A stretch of 38,926 nucleotides of DNA from Escherichia phage T7. Made by a program: the position numbers and the translations under genes. Of this stretch, positions 1 to 38,609 are shown piece by piece. The stretch lies in the sequence record MZ375241.1; one strand, written 5' to 3'. Position 1 is the first letter of the stretch. Each line of letters starts with the position of its first letter. The notes beneath the pieces are model-generated. The model did not search any database. It worked only from the letters and a program-made list of their open reading frames with translations, and was not told the DNA's origin.

Positions 1-160
1 TCTCACAGTGTACGGACCTAAAGTTCCCCCATAGGGGGTACCTAAAGCCCAGCCAATCACCTAAAGTCAACCTTCGGTTGACCTTGAGGGTTCCCTAAGG
101 GTTGGGGATGACCCTTGGGTTTGTCTTTGGGTGTTACCTTGAGTGTCTCTCTGTGTCCCT
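1..160 (+). repeat. Left direct terminal repeat (160 bp), identical to 38767-38926
   Basis: Exact duplicate of the last 160 bases of the window; T7-type terminal redundancy. Confidence 0.95.
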
Positions 161-174
161 ACCTGTTACAGTCT

Positions 175-338
175 CCTAAAGTATCCTCCTAAAGTCACCT
201 CCTAACGTCCATCCTAAAGCCAACACCTAAAGCCTACACCTAAAGACCCATCAAGTCAACGCCTATCTTAAAGTTTAAACATAAAGACCAGACCTAAAGA
301 CCAGACCTAAAGACACTACATAAAGACCAGACCTAAAG
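175..338 (+). repeat. Array of CCTAAAG-like heptamers just inside the left terminal repeat
   Basis: cctaaag or 1-mismatch variants at about 175,188,200,213,226,239,293,306,332; three more copies inside the terminal repeat (17,41,59). Confidence 0.7.
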
Positions 339-387
339 ACGCCTTGTTGTTAGCCATAAAGTGATAACCTTTAATCATTGTCTTTAT

Positions 388-410
388 TAATACAACTCAC
401 TATAGGGAGA
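388..410 (+). promoter_or_regulatory. T7 RNAP promoter phiOL (+1 G at 405), non-consensus A at -11
   Basis: taatacaactcactatagggaga; 22/23 match to the T7 promoter consensus. Confidence 0.85.
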
Positions 411-461
411 GACAACTTAAAGAGACTTAAAAGATTAATTTAAAATTTATCAAAAAGAGTA

Positions 462-498
462 TTGACTTAAAGTCTAACCTATAGGATACTTACAGCCA
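462..498 (+). promoter_or_regulatory. E. coli sigma70 early promoter A1
   Basis: -35 ttgact (462-467), 17-bp spacer, -10 gatact (485-490); T7 A1 by position and sequence. Confidence 0.8.
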
Positions 499-588
499 TC
501 GAGAGGGACACGGCGAATAGCCATCCCAATCGACACCGGGGTCAACCGGATAAGTAGACAGCCTGATAAGTCGCACGAAAAACAGGTA

Positions 589-626
589 TTGACAACATGA
601 AGTAACATGCAGTAAGATACAAATCG
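589..626 (+). promoter_or_regulatory. E. coli sigma70 early promoter A2
   Basis: -35 ttgaca (589-594), -10 taagat (613-618). Confidence 0.8.
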
Positions 627-713
627 CTAGGTAACACTAGCAGCGTCAACCGGGCGCACAGTGCCTTCTAGGTGACTTAAGCGCACCACGGCACATAAGG
701 TGAAACAAAACGG

Positions 714-750
714 TTGACAACATGAAGTAAACACGGTACGATGTACCACA
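714..750 (+). promoter_or_regulatory. E. coli sigma70 early promoter A3
   Basis: -35 ttgaca (714-719), -10 tacgat (737-742). Confidence 0.8.
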
Positions 751-862
751 TGAAACGACAGTGAGTCACCACACTGAAAGGTGATGCGGTCTAACGAAAC
801 CTGACCTAAGACGCTCTTTAACAATCTGGTAAATAGCTCTTGAGTGCATGACTAGCGGATAA

Positions 863-889
863 CTCAAGGGTATCGCAAGGTGCCCTTTA
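863..889 (+). promoter_or_regulatory. RNase III processing hairpin R0.3 upstream of ocr
   Basis: ctcaaggg...gcccttt hairpin of the same family as the other T7 RNase III sites. Confidence 0.55.
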
Positions 890-924
890 TGATATTCACT
901 AATAACTGCACGAGGTAACACAAG

Positions 925-1278
925 ATGGCTATGTCTAACATGACTTACAACAACGTTTTCGACCACGCTTACGAAATGCTGAAAGAAAACATCCGTTATG
1001 ATGACATCCGTGACACTGATGACCTGCACGATGCTATTCACATGGCTGCCGATAATGCAGTTCCGCACTACTACGCTGACATCTTTAGCGTAATGGCAAG
1101 TGAGGGCATTGACCTTGAGTTCGAAGACTCTGGTCTGATGCCTGACACCAAGGACGTAATCCGCATCCTGCAAGCGCGTATCTATGAGCAATTAACGATT
1201 GACCTCTGGGAAGACGCAGAAGACTTGCTCAATGAATACTTGGAGGAAGTCGAGGAGTACGAGGAGGATGAAGAGTAA
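925..1278 (+). CDS. 0.3: Ocr anti-restriction protein (DNA mimic, inhibits type I R-M)
   Basis: 117-aa ORF, very acidic with poly-E C-terminus; matches T7 gp0.3. Confidence 0.95.
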
Positions 1279-1409
1279 TGTCTACTACCAACGTGCAATA
1301 CGGTCTGACCGCTCAAACTGTACTTTTCTATAGCGACATGGGGCGGCGTGGCATAGACGAAAGGAAAAGGTTAAAGCCAAGAAACTCGCCGCACTTGAAC
1401 AGGCACTAG
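1278..1409 (+). pseudogene. 0.4: Gene 0.4 remnant: first ~21 codons of the FtsZ inhibitor gp0.4 fused to a 22-codon non-native tail
   Basis: ATG overlaps the ocr stop (taATG); translation [21 protein letters not shown] then GRRGIDERKRLKPRNSPHLNRH*; junction near 1340/1341. Confidence 0.7.
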
Positions 1410-1457
1410 CCAACACACTGAACGCTATCTCATAACGAACATAAAGGACACAATGCA

Positions 1458-2537
1458 ATGAACATTACCGACATCATGAACGCTATCGACGCAATCAAAG
1501 CACTGCCAATCTGTGAACTTGACAAGCGTCAAGGTATGCTTATCGACTTACTGGTCGAGATGGTCAACAGCGAGACGTGTGATGGCGAGCTAACCGAACT
1601 AAATCAGGCACTTGAGCATCAAGATTGGTGGACTACCTTGAAGTGTCTCACGGCTGACGCAGGGTTCAAGATGCTCGGTAATGGTCACTTCTCGGCTGCT
1701 TATAGTCACCCGCTGCTACCTAACAGAGTGATTAAGGTGGGCTTTAAGAAAGAGGATTCAGGCGCAGCCTATACCGCATTCTGCCGCATGTATCAGGGTC
1801 GTCCTGGTATCCCTAACGTCTACGATGTACAGCGCCACGCTGGATGCTATACGGTGGTACTTGACGCACTTAAGGATTGCGAGCGTTTCAACAATGATGC
1901 CCATTATAAATACGCTGAGATTGCAAGCGACATCATTGATTGCAATTCGGATGAGCATGATGAGTTAACTGGATGGGATGGTGAGTTTGTTGAAACTTGT
2001 AAACTAATCCGCAAGTTCTTTGAGGGCATCGCCTCATTCGACATGCATAGCGGGAACATCATGTTCTCAAATGGAGACGTACCATACATCACCGACCCGG
2101 TATCATTCTCGCAGAAGAAAGACGGTGGCGCATTCAGCATCGACCCTGAGGAACTCATCAAGGAAGTCGAGGAAGTCGCACGACAGAAAGAAATTGACCG
2201 CGCTAAGGCCCGTAAAGAACGTCACGAGGGGCGCTTAGAGGCACGCAGATTCAAACGTCGCAACCGCAAGGCACGTAAAGCACACAAAGCTAAGCGCGAA
2301 AGAATGCTTGCTGCGTGGCGATGGGCTGAACGTCAAGAACGGCGTAACCATGAGGTAGCTGTAGATGTACTAGGAAGAACCAATAACGCTATGCTCTGGG
2401 TCAACATGTTCTCTGGGGACTTTAAGGCGCTTGAGGAACGAATCGCGCTGCACTGGCGTAATGCTGACCGGATGGCTATCGCTAATGGTCTTACGCTCAA
2501 CATTGATAAGCAACTTGACGCAATGTTAATGGGCTGA
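1458..2537 (+). CDS. 0.7: Serine/threonine protein kinase / host transcription shut-off protein
   Basis: 359-aa ORF matching T7 gp0.7. Confidence 0.95.
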
Positions 2538-2607
2538 TAGTCTTATCTTACAGGTCATCTGCGGGTGGCCTGAATAGGTACGATTTACTAACTGGAAGAG
2601 GCACTAA

Positions 2608-5259
2608 ATGAACACGATTAACATCGCTAAGAACGACTTCTCTGACATCGAACTGGCTGCTATCCCGTTCAACACTCTGGCTGACCATTACGGTGAGCGT
2701 TTAGCTCGCGAACAGTTGGCCCTTGAGCATGAGTCTTACGAGATGGGTGAAGCACGCTTCCGCAAGATGTTTGAGCGTCAACTTAAAGCTGGTGAGGTTG
2801 CGGATAACGCTGCCGCCAAGCCTCTCATCACTACCCTACTCCCTAAGATGATTGCACGCATCAACGACTGGTTTGAGGAAGTGAAAGCTAAGCGCGGCAA
2901 GCGCCCGACAGCCTTCCAGTTCCTGCAAGAAATCAAGCCGGAAGCCGTAGCGTACATCACCATTAAGACCACTCTGGCTTGCCTAACCAGTGCTGACAAT
3001 ACAACCGTTCAGGCTGTAGCAAGCGCAATCGGTCGGGCCATTGAGGACGAGGCTCGCTTCGGTCGTATCCGTGACCTTGAAGCTAAGCACTTCAAGAAAA
3101 ACGTTGAGGAACAACTCAACAAGCGCGTAGGGCACGTCTACAAGAAAGCATTTATGCGAGTTGTCGAGGCTGACATGCTCTCTAAGGGTCTACTCGGTGG
3201 CGAGGCGTGGTCTTCGTGGCATAAGGAAGACTCTATTCATGTAGGAGTACGCTGCATCGAGATGCTCATTGAGTCAACCGGAATGGTTAGCTTACACCGC
3301 CAAAATGCTGGCGTAGTAGGTCAAGACTCTGAGACTATCGAACTCGCACCTGAATACGCTGAGGCTATCGCAACCCGTGCAGGTGCGCTGGCTGGCATCT
3401 CTCCGATGTTCCAACCTTGCGTAGTTCCTCCTAAGCCGTGGACTGGCATTACTGGTGGTGGCTATTGGGCTAACGGTCGTCGTCCTCTGGCGCTGGTGCG
3501 TACTCACAGTAAGAAAGCACTGATGCGCTACGAAGACGTTTACATGCCTGAGGTGTACAAAGCGATTAACATTGCGCAAAACACCGCATGGAAAATCAAC
3601 AAGAAAGTCCTAGCGGTCGCCAACGTAATCACCAAGTGGAAGCATTGTCCGGTCGAGGACATCCCTGCGATTGAGCGTGAAGAACTCCCGATGAAACCGG
3701 AAGACATCGACATGAATCCTGAGGCTCTCACCGCGTGGAAACGTGCTGCCGCTGCTGTGTACCGCAAGGACAAGGCTCGCAAGTCTCGCCGTATCAGCCT
3801 TGAGTTCATGCTTGAGCAAGCCAATAAGTTTGCTAACCATAAGGCCATCTGGTTCCCTTACAACATGGACTGGCGCGGTCGTGTTTACGCTGTGTCAATG
3901 TTCAACCCGCAAGGTAACGATATGACCAAAGGACTGCTTACGCTGGCGAAAGGTAAACCAATCGGTAAGGAAGGTTACTACTGGCTGAAAATCCACGGTG
4001 CAAACTGTGCGGGTGTCGATAAGGTTCCGTTCCCTGAGCGCATCAAGTTCATTGAGGAAAACCACGAGAACATCATGGCTTGCGCTAAGTCTCCACTGGA
4101 GAACACTTGGTGGGCTGAGCAAGATTCTCCGTTCTGCTTCCTTGCGTTCTGCTTTGAGTACGCTGGGGTACAGCACCACGGCCTGAGCTATAACTGCTCC
4201 CTTCCGCTGGCGTTTGACGGGTCTTGCTCTGGCATCCAGCACTTCTCCGCGATGCTCCGAGATGAGGTAGGTGGTCGCGCGGTTAACTTGCTTCCTAGTG
4301 AAACCGTTCAGGACATCTACGGGATTGTTGCTAAGAAAGTCAACGAGATTCTACAAGCAGACGCAATCAATGGGACCGATAACGAAGTAGTTACCGTGAC
4401 CGATGAGAACACTGGTGAAATCTCTGAGAAAGTCAAGCTGGGCACTAAGGCACTGGCTGGTCAATGGCTGGCTTACGGTGTTACTCGCAGTGTGACTAAG
4501 CGTTCAGTCATGACGCTGGCTTACGGGTCCAAAGAGTTCGGCTTCCGTCAACAAGTGCTGGAAGATACCATTCAGCCAGCTATTGATTCCGGCAAGGGTC
4601 TGATGTTCACTCAGCCGAATCAGGCTGCTGGATACATGGCTAAGCTGATTTGGGAATCTGTGAGCGTGACGGTGGTAGCTGCGGTTGAAGCAATGAACTG
4701 GCTTAAGTCTGCTGCTAAGCTGCTGGCTGCTGAGGTCAAAGATAAGAAGACTGGAGAGATTCTTCGCAAGCGTTGCGCTGTGCATTGGGTAACTCCTGAT
4801 GGTTTCCCTGTGTGGCAGGAATACAAGAAGCCTATTCAGACGCGCTTGAACCTGATGTTCCTCGGTCAGTTCCGCTTACAGCCTACCATTAACACCAACA
4901 AAGATAGCGAGATTGATGCACACAAACAGGAGTCTGGTATCGCTCCTAACTTTGTACACAGCCAAGACGGTAGCCACCTTCGTAAGACTGTAGTGTGGGC
5001 ACACGAGAAGTACGGAATCGAATCTTTTGCACTGATTCACGACTCCTTCGGTACCATTCCGGCTGACGCTGCGAACCTGTTCAAAGCAGTGCGCGAAACT
5101 ATGGTTGACACATATGAGTCTTGTGATGTACTGGCTGATTTCTACGACCAGTTCGCTGACCAGTTGCACGAGTCTCAATTGGACAAAATGCCAGCACTTC
5201 CGGCTAAAGGTAACTTGAACCTCCGTGACATCTTAGAGTCGGACTTCGCGTTCGCGTAA
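2608..5259 (+). CDS. 1: T7 DNA-dependent RNA polymerase (single subunit)
   Basis: 883-aa ORF; recognisable T7 RNAP sequence ending ...DILESDFAFA. Confidence 0.98.
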   Translation: MNTINIAKNDFSDIELAAIPFNTLADHYGERLAREQLALEHESYEMGEARFRKMFERQLKAGEVADNAAAKPLITTLLPKMIARINDWFEEVKAKRGKRPTAFQFLQEIKPEAVAYITIKTTLACLTSADNTTVQAVASAIGRAIEDEARFGRIRDLEAKHFKKNVEEQLNKRVGHVYKKAFMRVVEADMLSKGLLGGEAWSSWHKEDSIHVGVRCIEMLIESTGMVSLHRQNAGVVGQDSETIELAPEYAEAIATRAGALAGISPMFQPCVVPPKPWTGITGGGYWANGRRPLALVRTHSKKALMRYEDVYMPEVYKAINIAQNTAWKINKKVLAVANVITKWKHCPVEDIPAIEREELPMKPEDIDMNPEALTAWKRAAAAVYRKDKARKSRRISLEFMLEQANKFANHKAIWFPYNMDWRGRVYAVSMFNPQGNDMTKGLLTLAKGKPIGKEGYYWLKIHGANCAGVDKVPFPERIKFIEENHENIMACAKSPLENTWWAEQDSPFCFLAFCFEYAGVQHHGLSYNCSLPLAFDGSCSGIQHFSAMLRDEVGGRAVNLLPSETVQDIYGIVAKKVNEILQADAINGTDNEVVTVTDENTGEISEKVKLGTKALAGQWLAYGVTRSVTKRSVMTLAYGSKEFGFRQQVLEDTIQPAIDSGKGLMFTQPNQAAGYMAKLIWESVSVTVVAAVEAMNWLKSAAKLLAAEVKDKKTGEILRKRCAVHWVTPDGFPVWQEYKKPIQTRLNLMFLGQFRLQPTINTNKDSEIDAHKQESGIAPNFVHSQDGSHLRKTVVWAHEKYGIESFALIHDSFGTIPADAANLFKAVRETMVDTYESCDVLADFYDQFADQLHESQLDKMPALPAKGNLNLRDILESDFAFA

Positions 5260-5267
5260 CGCCAAAT

Positions 5268-5290
5268 CAATACGACTCACTATAGAGGGA
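5268..5290 (+). promoter_or_regulatory. T7 RNAP promoter phi1.1A (+1 at 5285)
   Basis: caatacgactcactatagaggga. Confidence 0.85.
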
Positions 5291-5294
5291 CAAA

Positions 5295-5324
5295 CTCAAG
5301 GTCATTCGCAAGAGTGGCCTTTAT
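5295..5324 (+). promoter_or_regulatory. RNase III site R1.1
   Basis: ctcaaggtcattcgcaagagtggccttt hairpin, the classic R1.1 substrate. Confidence 0.7.
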
Positions 5325-5342
5325 GATTGACCTTCTTCCGGT

Positions 5343-5365
5343 TAATACGACTCACTATAGGAGAA
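5343..5365 (+). promoter_or_regulatory. T7 RNAP promoter phi1.1B (+1 at 5360)
   Basis: taatacgactcactataggagaa. Confidence 0.85.
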
Positions 5366-5443
5366 CCTTAAGGTTTAACTTTAAGACCCTTAAGTGTTAA
5401 TTAGAGATTTAAATTAAAGAATTACTAAGAGAGGACTTTAAGT

Positions 5444-5572
5444 ATGCGTAACTTCGAAAAGATGACCAAACGTTCTAACCGTAATGCTCGTGACTTCGAG
5501 GCAACCAAAGGTCGCAAGTTGAATAAGACTAAGCGTGACCGCTCTCACAAGCGTAGCTGGGAGGGTCAGTAA
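5444..5572 (+). CDS. 1.1: Small basic protein, function unknown
   Basis: 42-codon ORF MRNFEKMTKRSNRNARDFEATKGRKLNKTKRDRSHKRSWEGQ with RBS; T7 gene 1.1 position. Confidence 0.8.
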   Translation: MRNFEKMTKRSNRNARDFEATKGRKLNKTKRDRSHKRSWEGQ

Positions 5573-5573
5573 G

Positions 5574-5831
5574 ATGGGACGTTTATATAGTGGTAATCTG
5601 GCAGCATTCAAGGCAGCAACAAACAAGCTGTTCCAGTTAGACTTAGCGGTCATTTATGATGACTGGTATGATGCCTATACAAGAAAAGATTGCATACGGT
5701 TACGTATTGAGGACAGGAGTGGAAACCTGATTGATACTAGCACCTTCTACCACCACGACGAGGACGTTCTGTTCAATATGTGTACTGATTGGTTGAACCA
5801 TATGTATGACCAGTTGAAGGACTGGAAGTAA
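5574..5831 (+). CDS. 1.2: Inhibitor of host dGTP triphosphohydrolase
   Basis: ATG at 5574 one base after the 1.1 stop; 85 aa; six-frame ORF 5535-5831 carries an upstream extension. Confidence 0.85.
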   Translation: MGRLYSGNLAAFKAATNKLFQLDLAVIYDDWYDAYTRKDCIRLRIEDRSGNLIDTSTFYHHDEDVLFNMCTDWLNHMYDQLKDWK

Positions 5832-5851
5832 TACGACTCAGTATAGGGACA
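5829..5851 (+). promoter_or_regulatory. T7 RNAP promoter phi1.3 (+1 at 5846)
   Basis: taatacgactcagtatagggaca. Confidence 0.85.
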
Positions 5852-5855
5852 ATGC

Positions 5856-5882
5856 TTAAGGTCGCTCTCTAGGAGTGGCCTT
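5856..5882 (+). promoter_or_regulatory. RNase III site R1.3
   Basis: ttaaggtcgctctctaggagtggcctt hairpin. Confidence 0.6.
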
Positions 5883-5911
5883 AGTCATTTAACCAATAGG
5901 AGATAAACATT

Positions 5912-6991
5912 ATGATGAACATTAAGACTAACCCGTTTAAAGCCGTGTCTTTCGTAGAGTCTGCCATTAAGAAGGCTCTGGATAACGCTGGGTATCTTAT
6001 CGCTGAAATCAAGTACGATGGTGTACGCGGGAACATCTGCGTAGACAATACTGCTAACAGTTACTGGCTCTCTCGTGTATCTAAAACGATTCCGGCACTG
6101 GAGCACTTAAACGGGTTTGATGTTCGCTGGAAGCGTCTACTGAACGATGACCGTTGCTTCTACAAAGATGGCTTTATGCTTGATGGGGAACTCATGGTCA
6201 AGGGCGTAGACTTTAACACAGGGTCCGGCCTACTGCGTACCAAATGGACTGACACGAAGAACCAAGAGTTCCATGAAGAGTTATTCGTTGAACCAATCCG
6301 TAAGAAAGATAAAGTTCCCTTTAAGCTGCACACTGGACACCTTCACATAAAACTGTACGCTATCCTCCCGCTGCACATCGTGGAGTCTGGAGAAGACTGT
6401 GATGTCATGACGTTGCTCATGCAGGAACACGTTAAGAACATGCTGCCTCTGCTACAGGAATACTTCCCTGAAATCGAATGGCAAGCGGCTGAATCTTACG
6501 AGGTCTACGATATGGTAGAACTACAGCAACTGTACGAGCAGAAGCGAGCAGAAGGCCATGAGGGTCTCATTGTGAAAGACCCGATGTGTATCTATAAGCG
6601 CGGTAAGAAATCTGGCTGGTGGAAAATGAAACCTGAGAACGAAGCTGACGGTATCATTCAGGGTCTGGTATGGGGTACAAAAGGTCTGGCTAATGAAGGT
6701 AAAGTGATTGGTTTTGAGGTGCTTCTTGAGAGTGGTCGTTTAGTTAACGCCACGAATATCTCTCGCGCCTTAATGGATGAGTTCACTGAGACAGTAAAAG
6801 AGGCCACCCTAAGTCAATGGGGATTCTTTAGCCCATACGGTATTGGCGACAACGATGCTTGTACTATTAACCCTTACGATGGCTGGGCGTGTCAAATTAG
6901 CTACATGGAGGAAACACCTGATGGCTCTTTGCGGCACCCATCGTTCGTAATGTTCCGTGGCACCGAGGACAACCCTCAAGAGAAAATGTAA
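5912..6991 (+). CDS. 1.3: ATP-dependent DNA ligase
   Basis: 359-aa ORF; AEIKYDGVRG adenylation motif (KxDG). Confidence 0.95.
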   Translation: MMNIKTNPFKAVSFVESAIKKALDNAGYLIAEIKYDGVRGNICVDNTANSYWLSRVSKTIPALEHLNGFDVRWKRLLNDDRCFYKDGFMLDGELMVKGVDFNTGSGLLRTKWTDTKNQEFHEELFVEPIRKKDKVPFKLHTGHLHIKLYAILPLHIVESGEDCDVMTLLMQEHVKNMLPLLQEYFPEIEWQAAESYEVYDMVELQQLYEQKRAEGHEGLIVKDPMCIYKRGKKSGWWKMKPENEADGIIQGLVWGTKGLANEGKVIGFEVLLESGRLVNATNISRALMDEFTETVKEATLSQWGFFSPYGIGDNDACTINPYDGWACQISYMEETPDGSLRHPSFVMFRGTEDNPQEKM

Positions 6992-6998
6992 TCACACT

Positions 6999-7030
6999 GG
7001 CTCACCTTCGGGTGGGCCTTTCTGCGTTTA
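6999..7030 (+). terminator. Early terminator TE (host RNAP, rho-independent)
   Basis: ggctcacc-ttcg-ggtgggcc stem-loop followed by tttctgcgttt. Confidence 0.85.
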
Positions 7031-7041
7031 TAAGGAGACAC

Positions 7042-7064
7042 TTTTACGACTCACTAAAGGAGGT
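7042..7064 (+). promoter_or_regulatory. T7 RNAP promoter phi1.5 (+1 at 7059) with altered upstream edge
   Basis: ttttacgactcactaaaggaggt; -17..-14 reads tttt instead of taat; lies at a deletion junction. Confidence 0.7.
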
Positions 7065-7071
7065 ACACACC

Positions 7072-7161
7072 ATGATGTACTTAATGCCATTACTCATCGT
7101 CATTGTAGGATGCCTTGCGCTCCACTGTAGCGATGATGATATGCCAGATGGTCACGCTTAA
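7072..7161 (+). CDS. 1.5: Small hypothetical protein
   Basis: 29-codon ORF after RBS aaggaggt; T7 gene 1.5 position. Confidence 0.7.
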   Translation: MMYLMPLLIVIVGCLALHCSDDDMPDGHA

Positions 7162-7181
7162 TACGACTCACTAAAGGAGAC
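7159..7181 (+). promoter_or_regulatory. T7 RNAP promoter phi1.6 (+1 at 7176)
   Basis: taatacgactcactaaaggagac. Confidence 0.85.
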
Positions 7182-7186
7182 ACTAT

Positions 7187-7447
7187 ATGTTTCGACTTCA
7201 TTACAACAAAAGCGTTAAGAATTTCACGGTTCGCCGTGCTGACCGTTCAATCGTATGTGCGAGCGAGCGCCGAGCTAAGATACCTCTTATTGGTAACACA
7301 GTTCCTTTGGCACCGAGCGTCCACATCATTATCACCCGTGGTGACTTTGAGAAAGCAATAGACAAGAAACGTCCGGTTCTTAGTGTGGCAGTGACCCGCT
7401 TCCCGTTCGTCCGTCTGTTACTCAAACGAATCAAGGAGGTGTTCTGA
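7187..7447 (+). CDS. 1.6: Hypothetical protein
   Basis: 86-aa ORF with RBS aaaggaga. Confidence 0.85.
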
Positions 7448-8029
7448 TGGGACTGTTAGATGGTGAAGCCTGGGAAAAAGAAAACCCGCCAGTACAAGCA
7501 ACTGGGTGTATAGCTTGCTTAGAGAAAGATGACCGTTATCCACACACCTGTAACAAAGGAGCTAACGATATGACCGAACGTGAACAAGAGATGATCATTA
7601 AGTTGATAGACAATAATGAAGGTCGCCCAGATGATTTGAATGGCTGCGGTATTCTCTGCTCCAATGTCCCTTGCCACCTCTGCCCCGCAAATAACGATCA
7701 AAAGATAACCTTAGGTGAAATCCGAGCGATGGACCCACGTAAACCACATCTGAATAAACCTGAGGTAACTCCTACAGATGACCAGCCTTCCGCTGAGACA
7801 ATCGAAGGTGTCACTAAGCCTTCCCACTACATGCTGTTTGACGACATTGAGGCTATCGAAGTGATTGCTCGTTCAATGACCGTTGAGCAGTTCAAGGGAT
7901 ACTGCTTCGGTAACATCTTAAAGTACAGACTACGTGCTGGTAAGAAGTCAGAGTTAGCGTACTTAGAGAAAGACCTAGCGAAAGCAGACTTCTATAAAGA
8001 ACTCTTTGAGAAACATAAGGATAAATGTT

Positions 8030-8037
<8 letters not shown>
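7447..8037 (+). CDS. 1.7: Nucleotide (dNMP) kinase
   Basis: 196-aa ORF, ATG overlapping the 1.6 stop. Confidence 0.85.
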
Positions 8038-8370
<333 letters not shown>

Positions 8371-8373
<3 letters not shown>

Positions 8374-8393
8374 TACGACTCACTATTAGGGAA
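8371..8393 (+). promoter_or_regulatory. T7 RNAP promoter phi2.5 (+1 A at 8388)
   Basis: taatacgactcactattagggaa; the A-initiating class II promoter. Confidence 0.85.
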
Positions 8394-8438
8394 GACTCCC
8401 TCTGAGAAACCAAACGAAACCTAAAGGAGATTAACATT

Positions 8439-9137
8439 ATGGCTAAGAAGATTTTCACCTCTGCGCTGGGTACCGCTGAACCTTACGCTTACATCGCCAA
8501 GCCGGACTACGGCAACGAAGAGCGTGGCTTTGGGAACCCTCGTGGTGTCTATAAAGTTGACCTGACTATTCCCAACAAAGACCCGCGCTGCCAGCGTATG
8601 GTCGATGAAATCGTGAAGTGTCACGAAGAGGCTTATGCTGCTGCCGTTGAGGAATACGAAGCTAATCCACCTGCTGTAGCTCGTGGTAAGAAACCGCTGA
8701 AACCGTATGAGGGTGACATGCCGTTCTTCGATAACGGTGACGGTACGACTACCTTTAAGTTCAAATGCTACGCGTCTTTCCAAGACAAGAAGACCAAAGA
8801 GACCAAGCACATCAATCTGGTTGTGGTTGACTCAAAAGGTAAGAAGATGGAAGACGTTCCGATTATCGGTGGTGGCTCTAAGCTGAAAGTTAAATATTCT
8901 CTGGTTCCATACAAGTGGAACACTGCTGTAGGTGCGAGCGTTAAGCTGCAACTGGAATCCGTGATGCTGGTCGAACTGGCTACCTTTGGTGGCGGTGAAG
9001 ACGATTGGGCTGACGAAGTTGAAGAGAACGGCTATGTTGCCTCTGGTTCTGCCAAAGCGAGCAAACCACGCGACGAAGAAAGCTGGGACGAAGACGACGA
9101 AGAGTCCGAGGAAGCAGACGAAGACGGAGACTTCTAA
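8439..9137 (+). CDS. 2.5: Single-stranded DNA-binding protein
   Basis: 232-aa ORF with acidic C-terminal tail ...DEDDEESEEADEDGDF. Confidence 0.95.
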   Translation: MAKKIFTSALGTAEPYAYIAKPDYGNEERGFGNPRGVYKVDLTIPNKDPRCQRMVDEIVKCHEEAYAAAVEEYEANPPAVARGKKPLKPYEGDMPFFDNGDGTTTFKFKCYASFQDKKTKETKHINLVVVDSKGKKMEDVPIIGGGSKLKVKYSLVPYKWNTAVGASVKLQLESVMLVELATFGGGEDDWADEVEENGYVASGSAKASKPRDEESWDEDDEESEEADEDGDF

Positions 9138-9557
9138 GTGGAACTGCGGGAGAAAATCCTTGAGCGAATCAAGGTGACTTCCTCTGGGTGTTGGGAGTGG
9201 CAGGGCGCTACGAACAATAAAGGGTACGGGCAGGTGTGGTGCAGCAATACCGGAAAGGTTGTCTACTGTCATCGCGTAATGTCTAATGCTCCGAAAGGTT
9301 CTACCGTCCTGCACTCCTGTGATAATCCATTATGTTGTAACCCTGAACACCTATCCATAGGAACTCCAAAAGAGAACTCCACTGACATGGTAAATAAGGG
9401 TCGCTCACACAAGGGGTATAAACTTTCAGACGAAGACGTAATGGCAATCATGGAGTCCAGCGAGTCCAATGTATCCTTAGCTCGCACCTATGGTGTCTCC
9501 CAACAGACTATTTGTGATATACGCAAAGGGAGGCGACATGGCAGGTTACGGCGCTAA
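9138..9557 (+). CDS. 2.8: HNH endonuclease-like protein (GTG start)
   Basis: 139-aa ORF; Cys/His HNH-type motifs (HRV...HSCDNPLCCNPEHL); paralogous to 7.7. Confidence 0.8.
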   Translation: MELREKILERIKVTSSGCWEWQGATNNKGYGQVWCSNTGKVVYCHRVMSNAPKGSTVLHSCDNPLCCNPEHLSIGTPKENSTDMVNKGRSHKGYKLSDEDVMAIMESSESNVSLARTYGVSQQTICDIRKGRRHGRLRR

Positions 9558-9987
9558 AGGAATCCGAAAGGTTGGAGCGTTTCGCTCTGGCCTAGAGGAC
9601 AAGGTTTCAAAGCAGTTGGAATCAAAAGGTATTAAATTCGAGTATGAAGAGTGGAAAGTGCCTTATGTAATTCCGGCGAGCAATCACACTTACACTCCAG
9701 ACTTCTTACTTCCAAACGGTATATTCGTTGAGACAAAGGGTCTGTGGGAAAGCGATGATAGAAAGAAGCACTTATTAATTAGGGAGCAGCACCCCGAGCT
9801 AGACATCCGTATTGTCTTCTCAAGCTCACGTACTAAGTTATACAAAGGTTCTCCAACGTCTTATGGAGAGTTCTGCGAAAAGCATGGTATTAAGTTCGCT
9901 GATAAACTGATACCTGCTGAGTGGATAAAGGAACCCAAGAAGGAGGTCCCCTTTGATAGATTAAAAAGGAAAGGAGGAAAGAAATAA
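9538..9987 (+). CDS. 3: Endonuclease I (Holliday junction resolvase)
   Basis: ATG at 9538 after RBS aagggagg; 149 aa; six-frame ORF starts earlier at 9490. Confidence 0.9.
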   Translation: MAGYGAKGIRKVGAFRSGLEDKVSKQLESKGIKFEYEEWKVPYVIPASNHTYTPDFLLPNGIFVETKGLWESDDRKKHLLIREQHPELDIRIVFSSSRTKLYKGSPTSYGEFCEKHGIKFADKLIPAEWIKEPKKEVPFDRLKRKGGKK

Positions 9988-10442
9988 TGGCTCGTGTACA
10001 GTTTAAACAACGTGAATCTACTGACGCAATCTTTGTTCACTGCTCGGCTACCAAGCCAAGTCAGAATGTTGGTGTCCGTGAGATTCGCCAGTGGCACAAA
10101 GAGCAGGGTTGGCTCGATGTGGGATACCACTTTATCATCAAGCGAGACGGTACTGTGGAGGCAGGACGAGATGAGATGGCTGTAGGCTCTCACGCTAAGG
10201 GTTACAACCACAACTCTATCGGCGTCTGCCTTGTTGGTGGTATCGACGATAAAGGTAAGTTCGACGCTAACTTTACGCCAGCCCAAATGCAATCCCTTCG
10301 CTCACTGCTTGTCACACTGCTGGCTAAGTACGAAGGCGCTGTGCTTCGCGCCCATCATGAGGTGGCGCCGAAGGCTTGCCCTTCGTTCGACCTTAAGCGT
10401 TGGTGGGAGAAGAACGAACTGGTCACTTCTGACCGTGGATAA
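9987..10442 (+). CDS. 3.5: Lysozyme (N-acetylmuramoyl-L-alanine amidase) / T7 RNAP inhibitor
   Basis: 151-aa ORF MARVQFKQRESTDAIFVHCSATK... Confidence 0.95.
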   Translation: MARVQFKQRESTDAIFVHCSATKPSQNVGVREIRQWHKEQGWLDVGYHFIIKRDGTVEAGRDEMAVGSHAKGYNHNSIGVCLVGGIDDKGKFDANFTPAQMQSLRSLLVTLLAKYEGAVLRAHHEVAPKACPSFDLKRWWEKNELVTSDRG

Positions 10443-12312
<1,870 letters not shown>

Positions 12313-12315
<3 letters not shown>

Positions 12316-12335
12316 TACGACTCACTAAAGGAGAC
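12313..12335 (+). promoter_or_regulatory. T7 RNAP promoter phi4.3 (+1 at 12330)
   Basis: taatacgactcactaaaggagac. Confidence 0.85.
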
Positions 12336-12340
12336 ACACC

Positions 12341-12553
12341 ATGTTCAAACTGATTAAGAAGTTAGGCCAACTGCTGGTTCGTATGTACAACGTGGAAGCC
12401 AAGCGACTGAACGATGAGGCTCGTAAAGAGGCCACACAGTCACGCGCTCTGGCGATTCGCTCCAACGAACTGGCTGACAGTGCATCCACTAAAGTTACCG
12501 AGGCTGCCCGTGTGGCAAACCAAGCTCAACAGCTTTCCAAATTCTTTGAGTAA
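12341..12553 (+). CDS. 4.3: Hypothetical protein
   Basis: 70-aa ORF. Confidence 0.8.
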   Translation: MFKLIKKLGQLLVRMYNVEAKRLNDEARKEATQSRALAIRSNELADSASTKVTEAARVANQAQQLSKFFE

Positions 12554-38527: not shown

Positions 38528-38609
38528 GGTCTTCCTGACCGACTGATGGCTCACCGAGGGATTCAGCGGTATGATTGCTTGACACCACTTCATCCCTATA
38601 GAGTCAAGT

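Follow-up and report, generated by a model that had tools for sequence, protein, structure and literature searches.

Our comparative sequence analysis revealed that the stretch of DNA studied here, 38,926 nucleotides of Escherichia phage T7 (MZ375241.1; hereafter the window), lacks 564 bp of the early region between gene 0.4 and the 0.6B/0.62 reading frame. The loss is best explained, with a probability of about 0.85, as an unplanned deletion in the lineage of the Cas9-driven genome-reduction experiment CiPGr, which would have arisen by short-homology recombination and been selected as an escape from CRISPR. The window represents a complete T7 genome including the 160-bp terminal repeats and measures 38,926 bp as compared with 39,937 bp in the reference V01146, to which it is 99.9% identical overall. 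Whole-genome BLAST against V01146 returned four colinear blocks, each of at least 99.96% identity, with three gaps between them (Table 1).

Extent of the early-region deletion

Base-by-base comparison with V01146 placed the switch in the early region at 1341|1342. Window positions 1-1341 equal reference positions 1-1341, and the window from 1341 onward equals the reference from 1904 onward, one G being common to both flanks, and the lost DNA can be numbered in V01146 as 1342-1904 or, equivalently, as 1341-1903 (563 bp). The initial annotation of this DNA had proposed a deletion of about 563 bp with a switch near 1340/1341. Its placement of the switch is confirmed, and reference T7, which was checked for carrying the same sequence at 1330-1460, differs there, so that the deletion reading stands. 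The size holds against V01146 but has to be raised by one against modern T7 (AY264774 and T7_10L), which contains one more A after V01146 position 1895, at 1896. Since this additional A falls inside the lost segment, the true loss amounts to 564 bp, or 188 codons.

According to the V01146 annotation, codons 22-51 of gene 0.4, gene 0.5, E. coli promoter B and gene 0.6A all lie within the lost segment, which also comprised the R0.5 RNase III hairpin and most of 0.6B, i.e. of the conserved 72-aa '0.6B/0.62' reading frame. The reported absence of genes 0.5 and 0.6A/B and of R0.5 is thereby borne out by annotation, folding and motif search, with the specification that most of 0.6B was lost. The breakpoints are situated inside gene 0.4 and inside the 0.6B/0.62 reading frame, four genes are spanned and neither end coincides with a gene boundary, as had been pointed out from the sequence alone. 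Likewise present are the ATG at 1278 overlapping the ocr TAA and the end of the open reading frame at 1409. Gene 0.7 follows close downstream as described, its start at 1458 being separated from the chimeric frame by a spacer of 48 nt (1410-1457), and the deletion leaves its Shine-Dalgarno sequence and start untouched.

Table 1. Features of the early region of the window and gaps in its alignment to reference T7 (window coordinates unless V01146 is named)
Feature	Position	Strand	Size or state	Basis
R0.3 RNase III-type hairpin, upstream of ocr	853..901	+	kept	fold z = -2.3; motif AAGG..CTTTATGAT at 866-893
Gene 0.3 (ocr)	925..1278	+	intact; TAA stop overlaps next ATG	ORF list, V01146 annotation
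Chimeric ORF	1278..1409	+	43 aa	ORF list, gp0.4 and 0.6B comparison
Deletion junction 1341|1342 and single kept repeat copy GGGCGGCGTGGC	1341..1352	+		comparison with parental flanks
Start-less 3' remnant of 72-aa ORF (T7 '0.6B', Kvp1 gene 0.62)	1343..1435	+	30 residues	native frame
Gene 0.7 Shine-Dalgarno AAGGA (1444-1448) and ATG (1458-1460)	1444..1460	+	same as reference	sequence
Gene 0.7 protein kinase	1458..2537	+	intact	ORF list, V01146 annotation
R1 RNase III-type hairpin, between 0.7 and gene 1	2540..2602	+	kept	fold z = -2.2; reference alignment continuous
Gap 1	V01146 1342-1904		563 bp	BLAST
Gap 2	V01146 7608-7763		156 bp	BLAST
Gap 3	V01146 11254-11545		292 bp	BLAST

Lineage and source experiment

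A junction identical to that of the window is present in 31 GenBank genomes within the series MZ375237-MZ375292 ('Mutant Escherichia phage T7 clone T7_30L', 'T7_60L' and others). T7_60L is identical to window positions 1-12341, shares all three deletions and has lost a further 198 bp; T7_30L (39,218 bp) carries the first two deletions, and the early region is still present in T7_10L, the experiment's earliest clone. T7_10L and T7_30L were compared by pattern searches and alignments. The genome lengths fit the additive accumulation of deletions (39938 to 39218 to 38926 to 38728), and the lineage has point mutations in common, namely T162C, A405G, Q184R in gene 1 and several changes in genes 11, 12, 16 and 17.

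CiPGr has been described as a Cas9-driven iterative reduction of the T7 genome (Yuan, Shi, Jiang, Ma; Yuan et al. 2022, Nucleic Acids Res 50:13183; PMC9825161). As that paper describes it, T7 was passaged about 300 times in E. coli MG1655 with SpCas9 and a pooled guide library whose 50-bp homology arms were meant to delete non-essential genes either whole or in pieces of 100 bp, and the clones were named T7_nnnL (PMC9825161). Losses of the 'large fragment' type that had not been designed, among them 'gp0.3-0.6', were reported for T7 as well and also appeared in population sequencing, some of them being credited by the authors to CRISPR escape (PMC9825161). Judging from the shared junctions and point mutations, the window belongs to the CiPGr series, and its early deletion, which is of a well-understood kind, is already known from the genomes deposited for this published experiment. 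The loss labelled 'gp0.3-0.6' corresponds to the same event, as the junction, the gene 1.4 and gene 3.8 deletions and the point mutations are shared with the window; contrary to the label, ocr (0.3) is intact here. In its main text the source study names the region at gene level only and does not describe breakpoints, repeat or chimeric reading frame (Yuan et al. 2022).

The initial annotation had regarded the deletion as spontaneous, of the kind seen in lab-passaged T7. That it was not designed agrees with our analysis, whereas the lineage derives from Cas9-driven genome reduction and not from plain passage. Because the junction marks a Cas9 genome-reduction lineage, the deletion would have originated or been favoured while CRISPR was attacking these genes.

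Repeat at the junction and origin of the deletion

The parental flanks of the junction are identical in register at 9 of 12 positions (GGTGCGCTGTGGC-type in the left flank, GGGCGGCGTGGC in the right one) and constitute a 12-nt imperfect direct repeat, a level of identity reached by 42 of the 80,665 sequence-window pairs between the two zones. The crossover coincides with the left end of this repeat, and positions 1341-1352 equal its right-hand copy. One repeat copy was kept, no bases were inserted and the alignment to both flanks is seamless. Microhomology, for which an alignment had been proposed, is limited to an exact overlap of just 1 nt (G), yet both breakpoints lie at the direct repeat with its 9/12 flanks.

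A sister junction of the same deletion length, whose crossover lies at the right end of the repeat, in its mismatch-free GTGGC core, was found in 10 genomes (MZ375261, 273, 277, 282, 283, 288, 289 and OL964739-41). The window-type and sister junctions differ at exactly the three repeat mismatches, and both classes carry mutations that arose after transfer 10. A third class is formed by an independent 677-bp deletion at CTGA microhomology, present in 11 genomes and first in T7_40L. In this clone (MZ375239) the 677-bp junction lies at about 1305-1313, and the deletion extends from about codon 10 of gene 0.4 to 40 nt before gene 0.7.

The two junction types of equal length would be expected if they had come about separately, at a shared hotspot, or together, as the strands of a single annealing intermediate that escaped repair. 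The shared background mutations fit one event or two, because T7 recombines freely. A single intermediate would require that, after a Cas9 break, the resected ends annealed over the 12-nt repeat, the three mismatches were left unrepaired and replication segregated both strands, giving the window type with the right copy (n = 31) and the sister type with the left copy (n = 10). We advance this possibility only tentatively; if true, the two classes would document, as it happened naturally in vivo, single-strand annealing in T7 with no more than 9/12 nt of homology. Recombination made use of the 12-nt imperfect repeat in at least one instance and possibly in two.

A 10-nt repeat without mismatches, CAATGGCACA, exists at 1369/1822 and was left unused. 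Given this and the exact overlap of a single nucleotide, the endpoints are not accounted for by homology only, and it is probable that the site of the break and the advantage of losing target sites also played a part. Among the 67 candidate NGG sites in the 0.4-0.6 interval, 55 cut inside the deleted segment and 11 are wholly kept in the flanks.

Under the explanation that we favour, the DNA from codon 21 of gene 0.4 to the 3' end of 0.6B/0.62 would have been lost between the repeat copies G[T/G]GCG[C/G][T/C]GTGGC, most likely through a Cas9 break within 0.4-0.6 whose resected ends annealed or, alternatively, through replication slippage. Its spread could be attributed to the advantage of a single event that strips most candidate Cas9 sites from three targeted dispensable genes. 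As an outcome, gp0.4 is cut after residue 21, and gp0.5, gp0.6A/B, the minor E. coli promoter B and R0.5 are gone.

It is possible, though in our judgement rather unlikely, that slippage or illegitimate recombination at the short repeat proceeded spontaneously, without a Cas9 break, and that the product was enriched afterwards, either as Cas9 killed the phages keeping 0.4-0.6 or as the shorter early region was neutral or beneficial in passage. The absence of inserted bases and the single repeat copy at the junction are compatible with such an origin, the existence of three junction classes points to an interval that is easily lost, and T7 is known to lose early-region DNA between short direct repeats, as in Studier's deletion mutants and in the work of Pierce and Masker. 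However, all three classes appeared within about 30-40 transfers under a regime cutting exactly these genes, and double-strand breaks are known to stimulate repeat-mediated deletion in T7. Sequence alone does not separate this course of events from one initiated by a Cas9 break.

A designed CiPGr edit, in which a plasmid repair template with 50-bp arms specified the 564-bp deletion, is very improbable. The same genome does contain the exact and clearly designed gene 1.4 deletion, and the library did target small early genes (PMC9825161), but the designs were for whole genes or 100 bp. The early deletion is judged undesigned because its endpoints are off the gene boundaries, it spans four genes and its size is 564 bp rather than 100 bp; the loss of the region was also classed by the authors as not designed (PMC9825161), and one template would not yield the sister junction within the same repeat and the 677-bp junction. 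Least probable of all is an assembly artefact in which reads collapsed over the short repeat while the full region is really present: nothing specific speaks for it, the records being short-read assemblies, whereas an imperfect repeat of 12 nt is unable to make a read assembly collapse, one and the same junction recurs in 31 separately assembled clones with different junctions in 21 others, the additive genome lengths given above are consistent with real deletions, and the loss was also detected by population sequencing (PMC9825161).

Chimeric reading frame and gp0.4 remnant

The chimeric frame is composed of gp0.4 residues 1-21, the junction codon GGG at 1341-1343, which puts Gly in place of gp0.4 Val22, and a basic 22-residue tail, GRRGIDERKRLKPRNSPHLNRH. 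The first 21 residues are identical to T7 gp0.4, so the N-terminal remnant had been recognized correctly. The PHROG 7202 profile (gp0.4 family) matched the chimera at profile positions 2-25 of 50 only, Pfam has no family for gp0.4 or for the chimera, and the 43-aa frame is not annotated in the deposited genome records carrying the junction.

The gp0.4 protein is a two-helix FtsZ inhibitor, the toxicity of which is abolished by a single substitution at V15, V22, W28, M32, L35 or Y39 (PMC13423816). Among these FtsZ-contact residues V15 is kept in the chimera, V22 is replaced by G, and W28, M32, L35 and Y39 are gone together with the full two-helix structure. Since V15 alone is retained among the required residues, the chimera should be inactive as an FtsZ inhibitor and should represent a truncated gp0.4 devoid of this function. 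It keeps the gene 0.4 start and the overlap with the ocr stop and is therefore probably translated, its product being probably a short basic peptide with no expected function.

The tail had been termed unrelated, which is right in effect, as it is out of frame in the parent, but its 22 residues are identical to the C-terminus of the 'possible gene 0.6B' of V01146 and match the end of the PHROG 8393 profile. This tail frame of 0.6B exists in V01146 because the A is missing from that record. In modern T7 the open reading frame at the tail site encodes 72 aa (1781-1999), and the tail frame has stops shortly upstream. The 72-aa protein is 88-94% conserved in five relatives (N30, YpP-R, A7, Kvp1, where it is gene 0.62, and LPST144), and modern T7 and these relatives conserve this other frame and not that of the tail. 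The tail as an in-frame native gp0.6B, with a shared stop and the PHROG 8393 match, was considered and rejected in view of the extra A and the conserved alternative frame. Judged by the reading frames, the tail results from reading the 3' end of the 72-aa frame in a different phase.

With the extra A, the C-terminus of 'possible gene 0.6B' becomes the different 33-residue end of the 72-aa frame. NC_001604 was taken to be without the A as well, from its length of 39,937 bp, equal to that of V01146. By this comparison the V01146 0.6B C-terminus and the end of the PHROG 8393 profile look like an annotation artefact, and the C-terminus that depends on the missing A is still in use in NC_001604 and in a PHROG profile. 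The evidence against it is a mildly new point.

Processing of the early RNA

RNase III sites were assessed by folding and motif search. The hairpins at 853..901 and 2540..2602 we take to be R0.3 and R1, respectively, and the site names and cleavage positions are those reportedly given by Dunn & Studier 1983. A literature search for R0.5 coordinates returned none, and the early RNase III sites of T7 are not represented by any Rfam family. In wild type the R0.5 hairpin lies between 0.4 and 0.5 at 1441-1471 (fold z = -3.0), and it is missing from the window. The AAGG...CTTTATGAT motif occurs at R0.3, R0.5 and R1.1 in wild type and at R0.3 and R1.1 only in the window. Folding of the junction region gave no structure (z = +0.2), and no new promoter or terminator was seen at the junction.

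As R0.5 is gone and R0.3 and R1 are kept, ocr, the chimeric frame and gene 0.7 are expected on one processed early RNA, which should be about 1.7 kb long from R0.3, its predicted 5' boundary, to R1, its predicted 3' boundary, and to replace the individual RNAs of 0.3 (about 0.58 kb) and 0.7 (about 1.67 kb). The initial annotation had anticipated such a single ocr-0.4'-0.7 mRNA. Its reasoning is sound with regard to the loss of the R0.5 hairpin and motif and the retention of both neighbouring sites, cleavage being presumed from established T7 biology.

Other changes in the genome

The gene 1.4 deletion at window 7044|7045 (V01146 7608-7763) removes the gene exactly from ATG through stop, shows no microhomology and, by its endpoints, is clearly attributable to a deliberate, designed whole-gene edit. 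The TAA stop of gene 1.4 constitutes positions -17 to -15 of the T7 promoter phi1.5, which now starts with TTT instead of TAA (A to T at -16 and -15), a change that may weaken the promoter.

The 292-bp deletion in gene 3.8, an HNH endonuclease homologue, has its junction at 10534|10535 and corresponds to the loss of V01146 11254-11545. The first 29 nt of gene 3.8 are joined to the 19 nt preceding the gene 4A ATG, with the 3.8 start in frame with 4A. The resulting 3.8-4A fusion frame (10506-12254) encodes 582 aa with 16 extra N-terminal residues before the primase zinc-finger region, and the T7_60L record annotates this long 582-aa form as primase/helicase.

Several point mutations accompany the deletions. 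A405G lies at +1 of the T7 promoter phiOL, so that the start region turns from TATAAGGAGA into TATAGGGAGA, the GGGAGA consensus; the window shares this change with T7_30L and T7_60L, while T7_10L, T7_40L and the reference genomes lack it, and it could be a promoter-up mutation. The T7 RNA polymerase substitution Q184R (gene 1, window 3158) was found in T7_30L, T7_60L and T7_150L and not in T7_10L, a distribution indicating that it arose early in the experiment and then persisted. The non-coding change T162C, just inside the left terminal repeat boundary, is carried by T7_30L, 40L, 60L and 150L and not by T7_10L. Further missense changes with respect to the reference are M139I in gene 6, T13P in 7.3, A153E in 11 and T468A in 12 (window 16909, 18560, 23674 and 25232, respectively) as well as G809S, K1158R, A1193V and M1249V in gene 16 (32008, 33056, 33161 and 33328). 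None of the other clones compared showed gene 6 M139I or gene 16 M1249V; gene 17 K214E (window 34252) is already present in T7_10L. A cluster of three nucleotides downstream of gene 19.5 (window 38579-38581, V01146 39590-39592, non-coding) reads TTG in place of the reference ATC, and T7_60L differs again at this cluster.

Comparison with known systems and implications

Classical viable T7 early-region deletion mutants were reportedly described by Studier in 1973, by Simon and Studier in the same year and by Studier, Rosenberg, Simon and Dunn in 1979; their deletions are said to end at short direct repeats and to join adjacent early RNAs processed by RNase III. These mutants resemble the window in being viable deletions of non-essential class I genes that fuse early RNAs. 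They reportedly differ in having other endpoints and in being selected by the heat or chelator resistance of shorter genomes and not by Cas9. Break-stimulated deletion in T7 between engineered perfect direct repeats was reportedly studied by Pierce, Kong and Masker in 1991 and by Kong and Masker in 1994. Such deletions are like that of the window in keeping one repeat copy, in the absence of filler bases and in spanning a presumed break, whereas the repeats used there were engineered and perfect and the repeat in the window is natural, 12 nt long and 9/12 identical, the break being deduced. The imperfect-repeat hotspot with its sister junction is a mildly new point.

Gene 0.4 mutants of T7 that escape the CapRelEbc defence have been selected and comprise a 1-nt frameshift, W28L and L35P (PMC13423816). 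In them, as presumably in the window, gp0.4 is inactive because it lacks the second helix or residues needed to contact FtsZ, and they show that T7 can do without gene 0.4 and gives it up easily under selection. They are small, defence-selected changes, in contrast to the 564-bp deletion of the window, which also removes 0.5, 0.6 and R0.5.

The window is an engineered and evolved T7 genome and not a natural isolate, which accounts for its broken-looking early region. It illustrates that T7 grows without both of its inhibitors of the host cytoskeleton, gp0.4 and gp0.6, the latter cited as an MreB inhibitor (PMC5624674), and without the R0.5 site, as was already known from the source study and the classical deletion mutants. 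The phage should, as a prediction, escape the CapRelEbc defence, a sensor of FtsZ-bound gp0.4.
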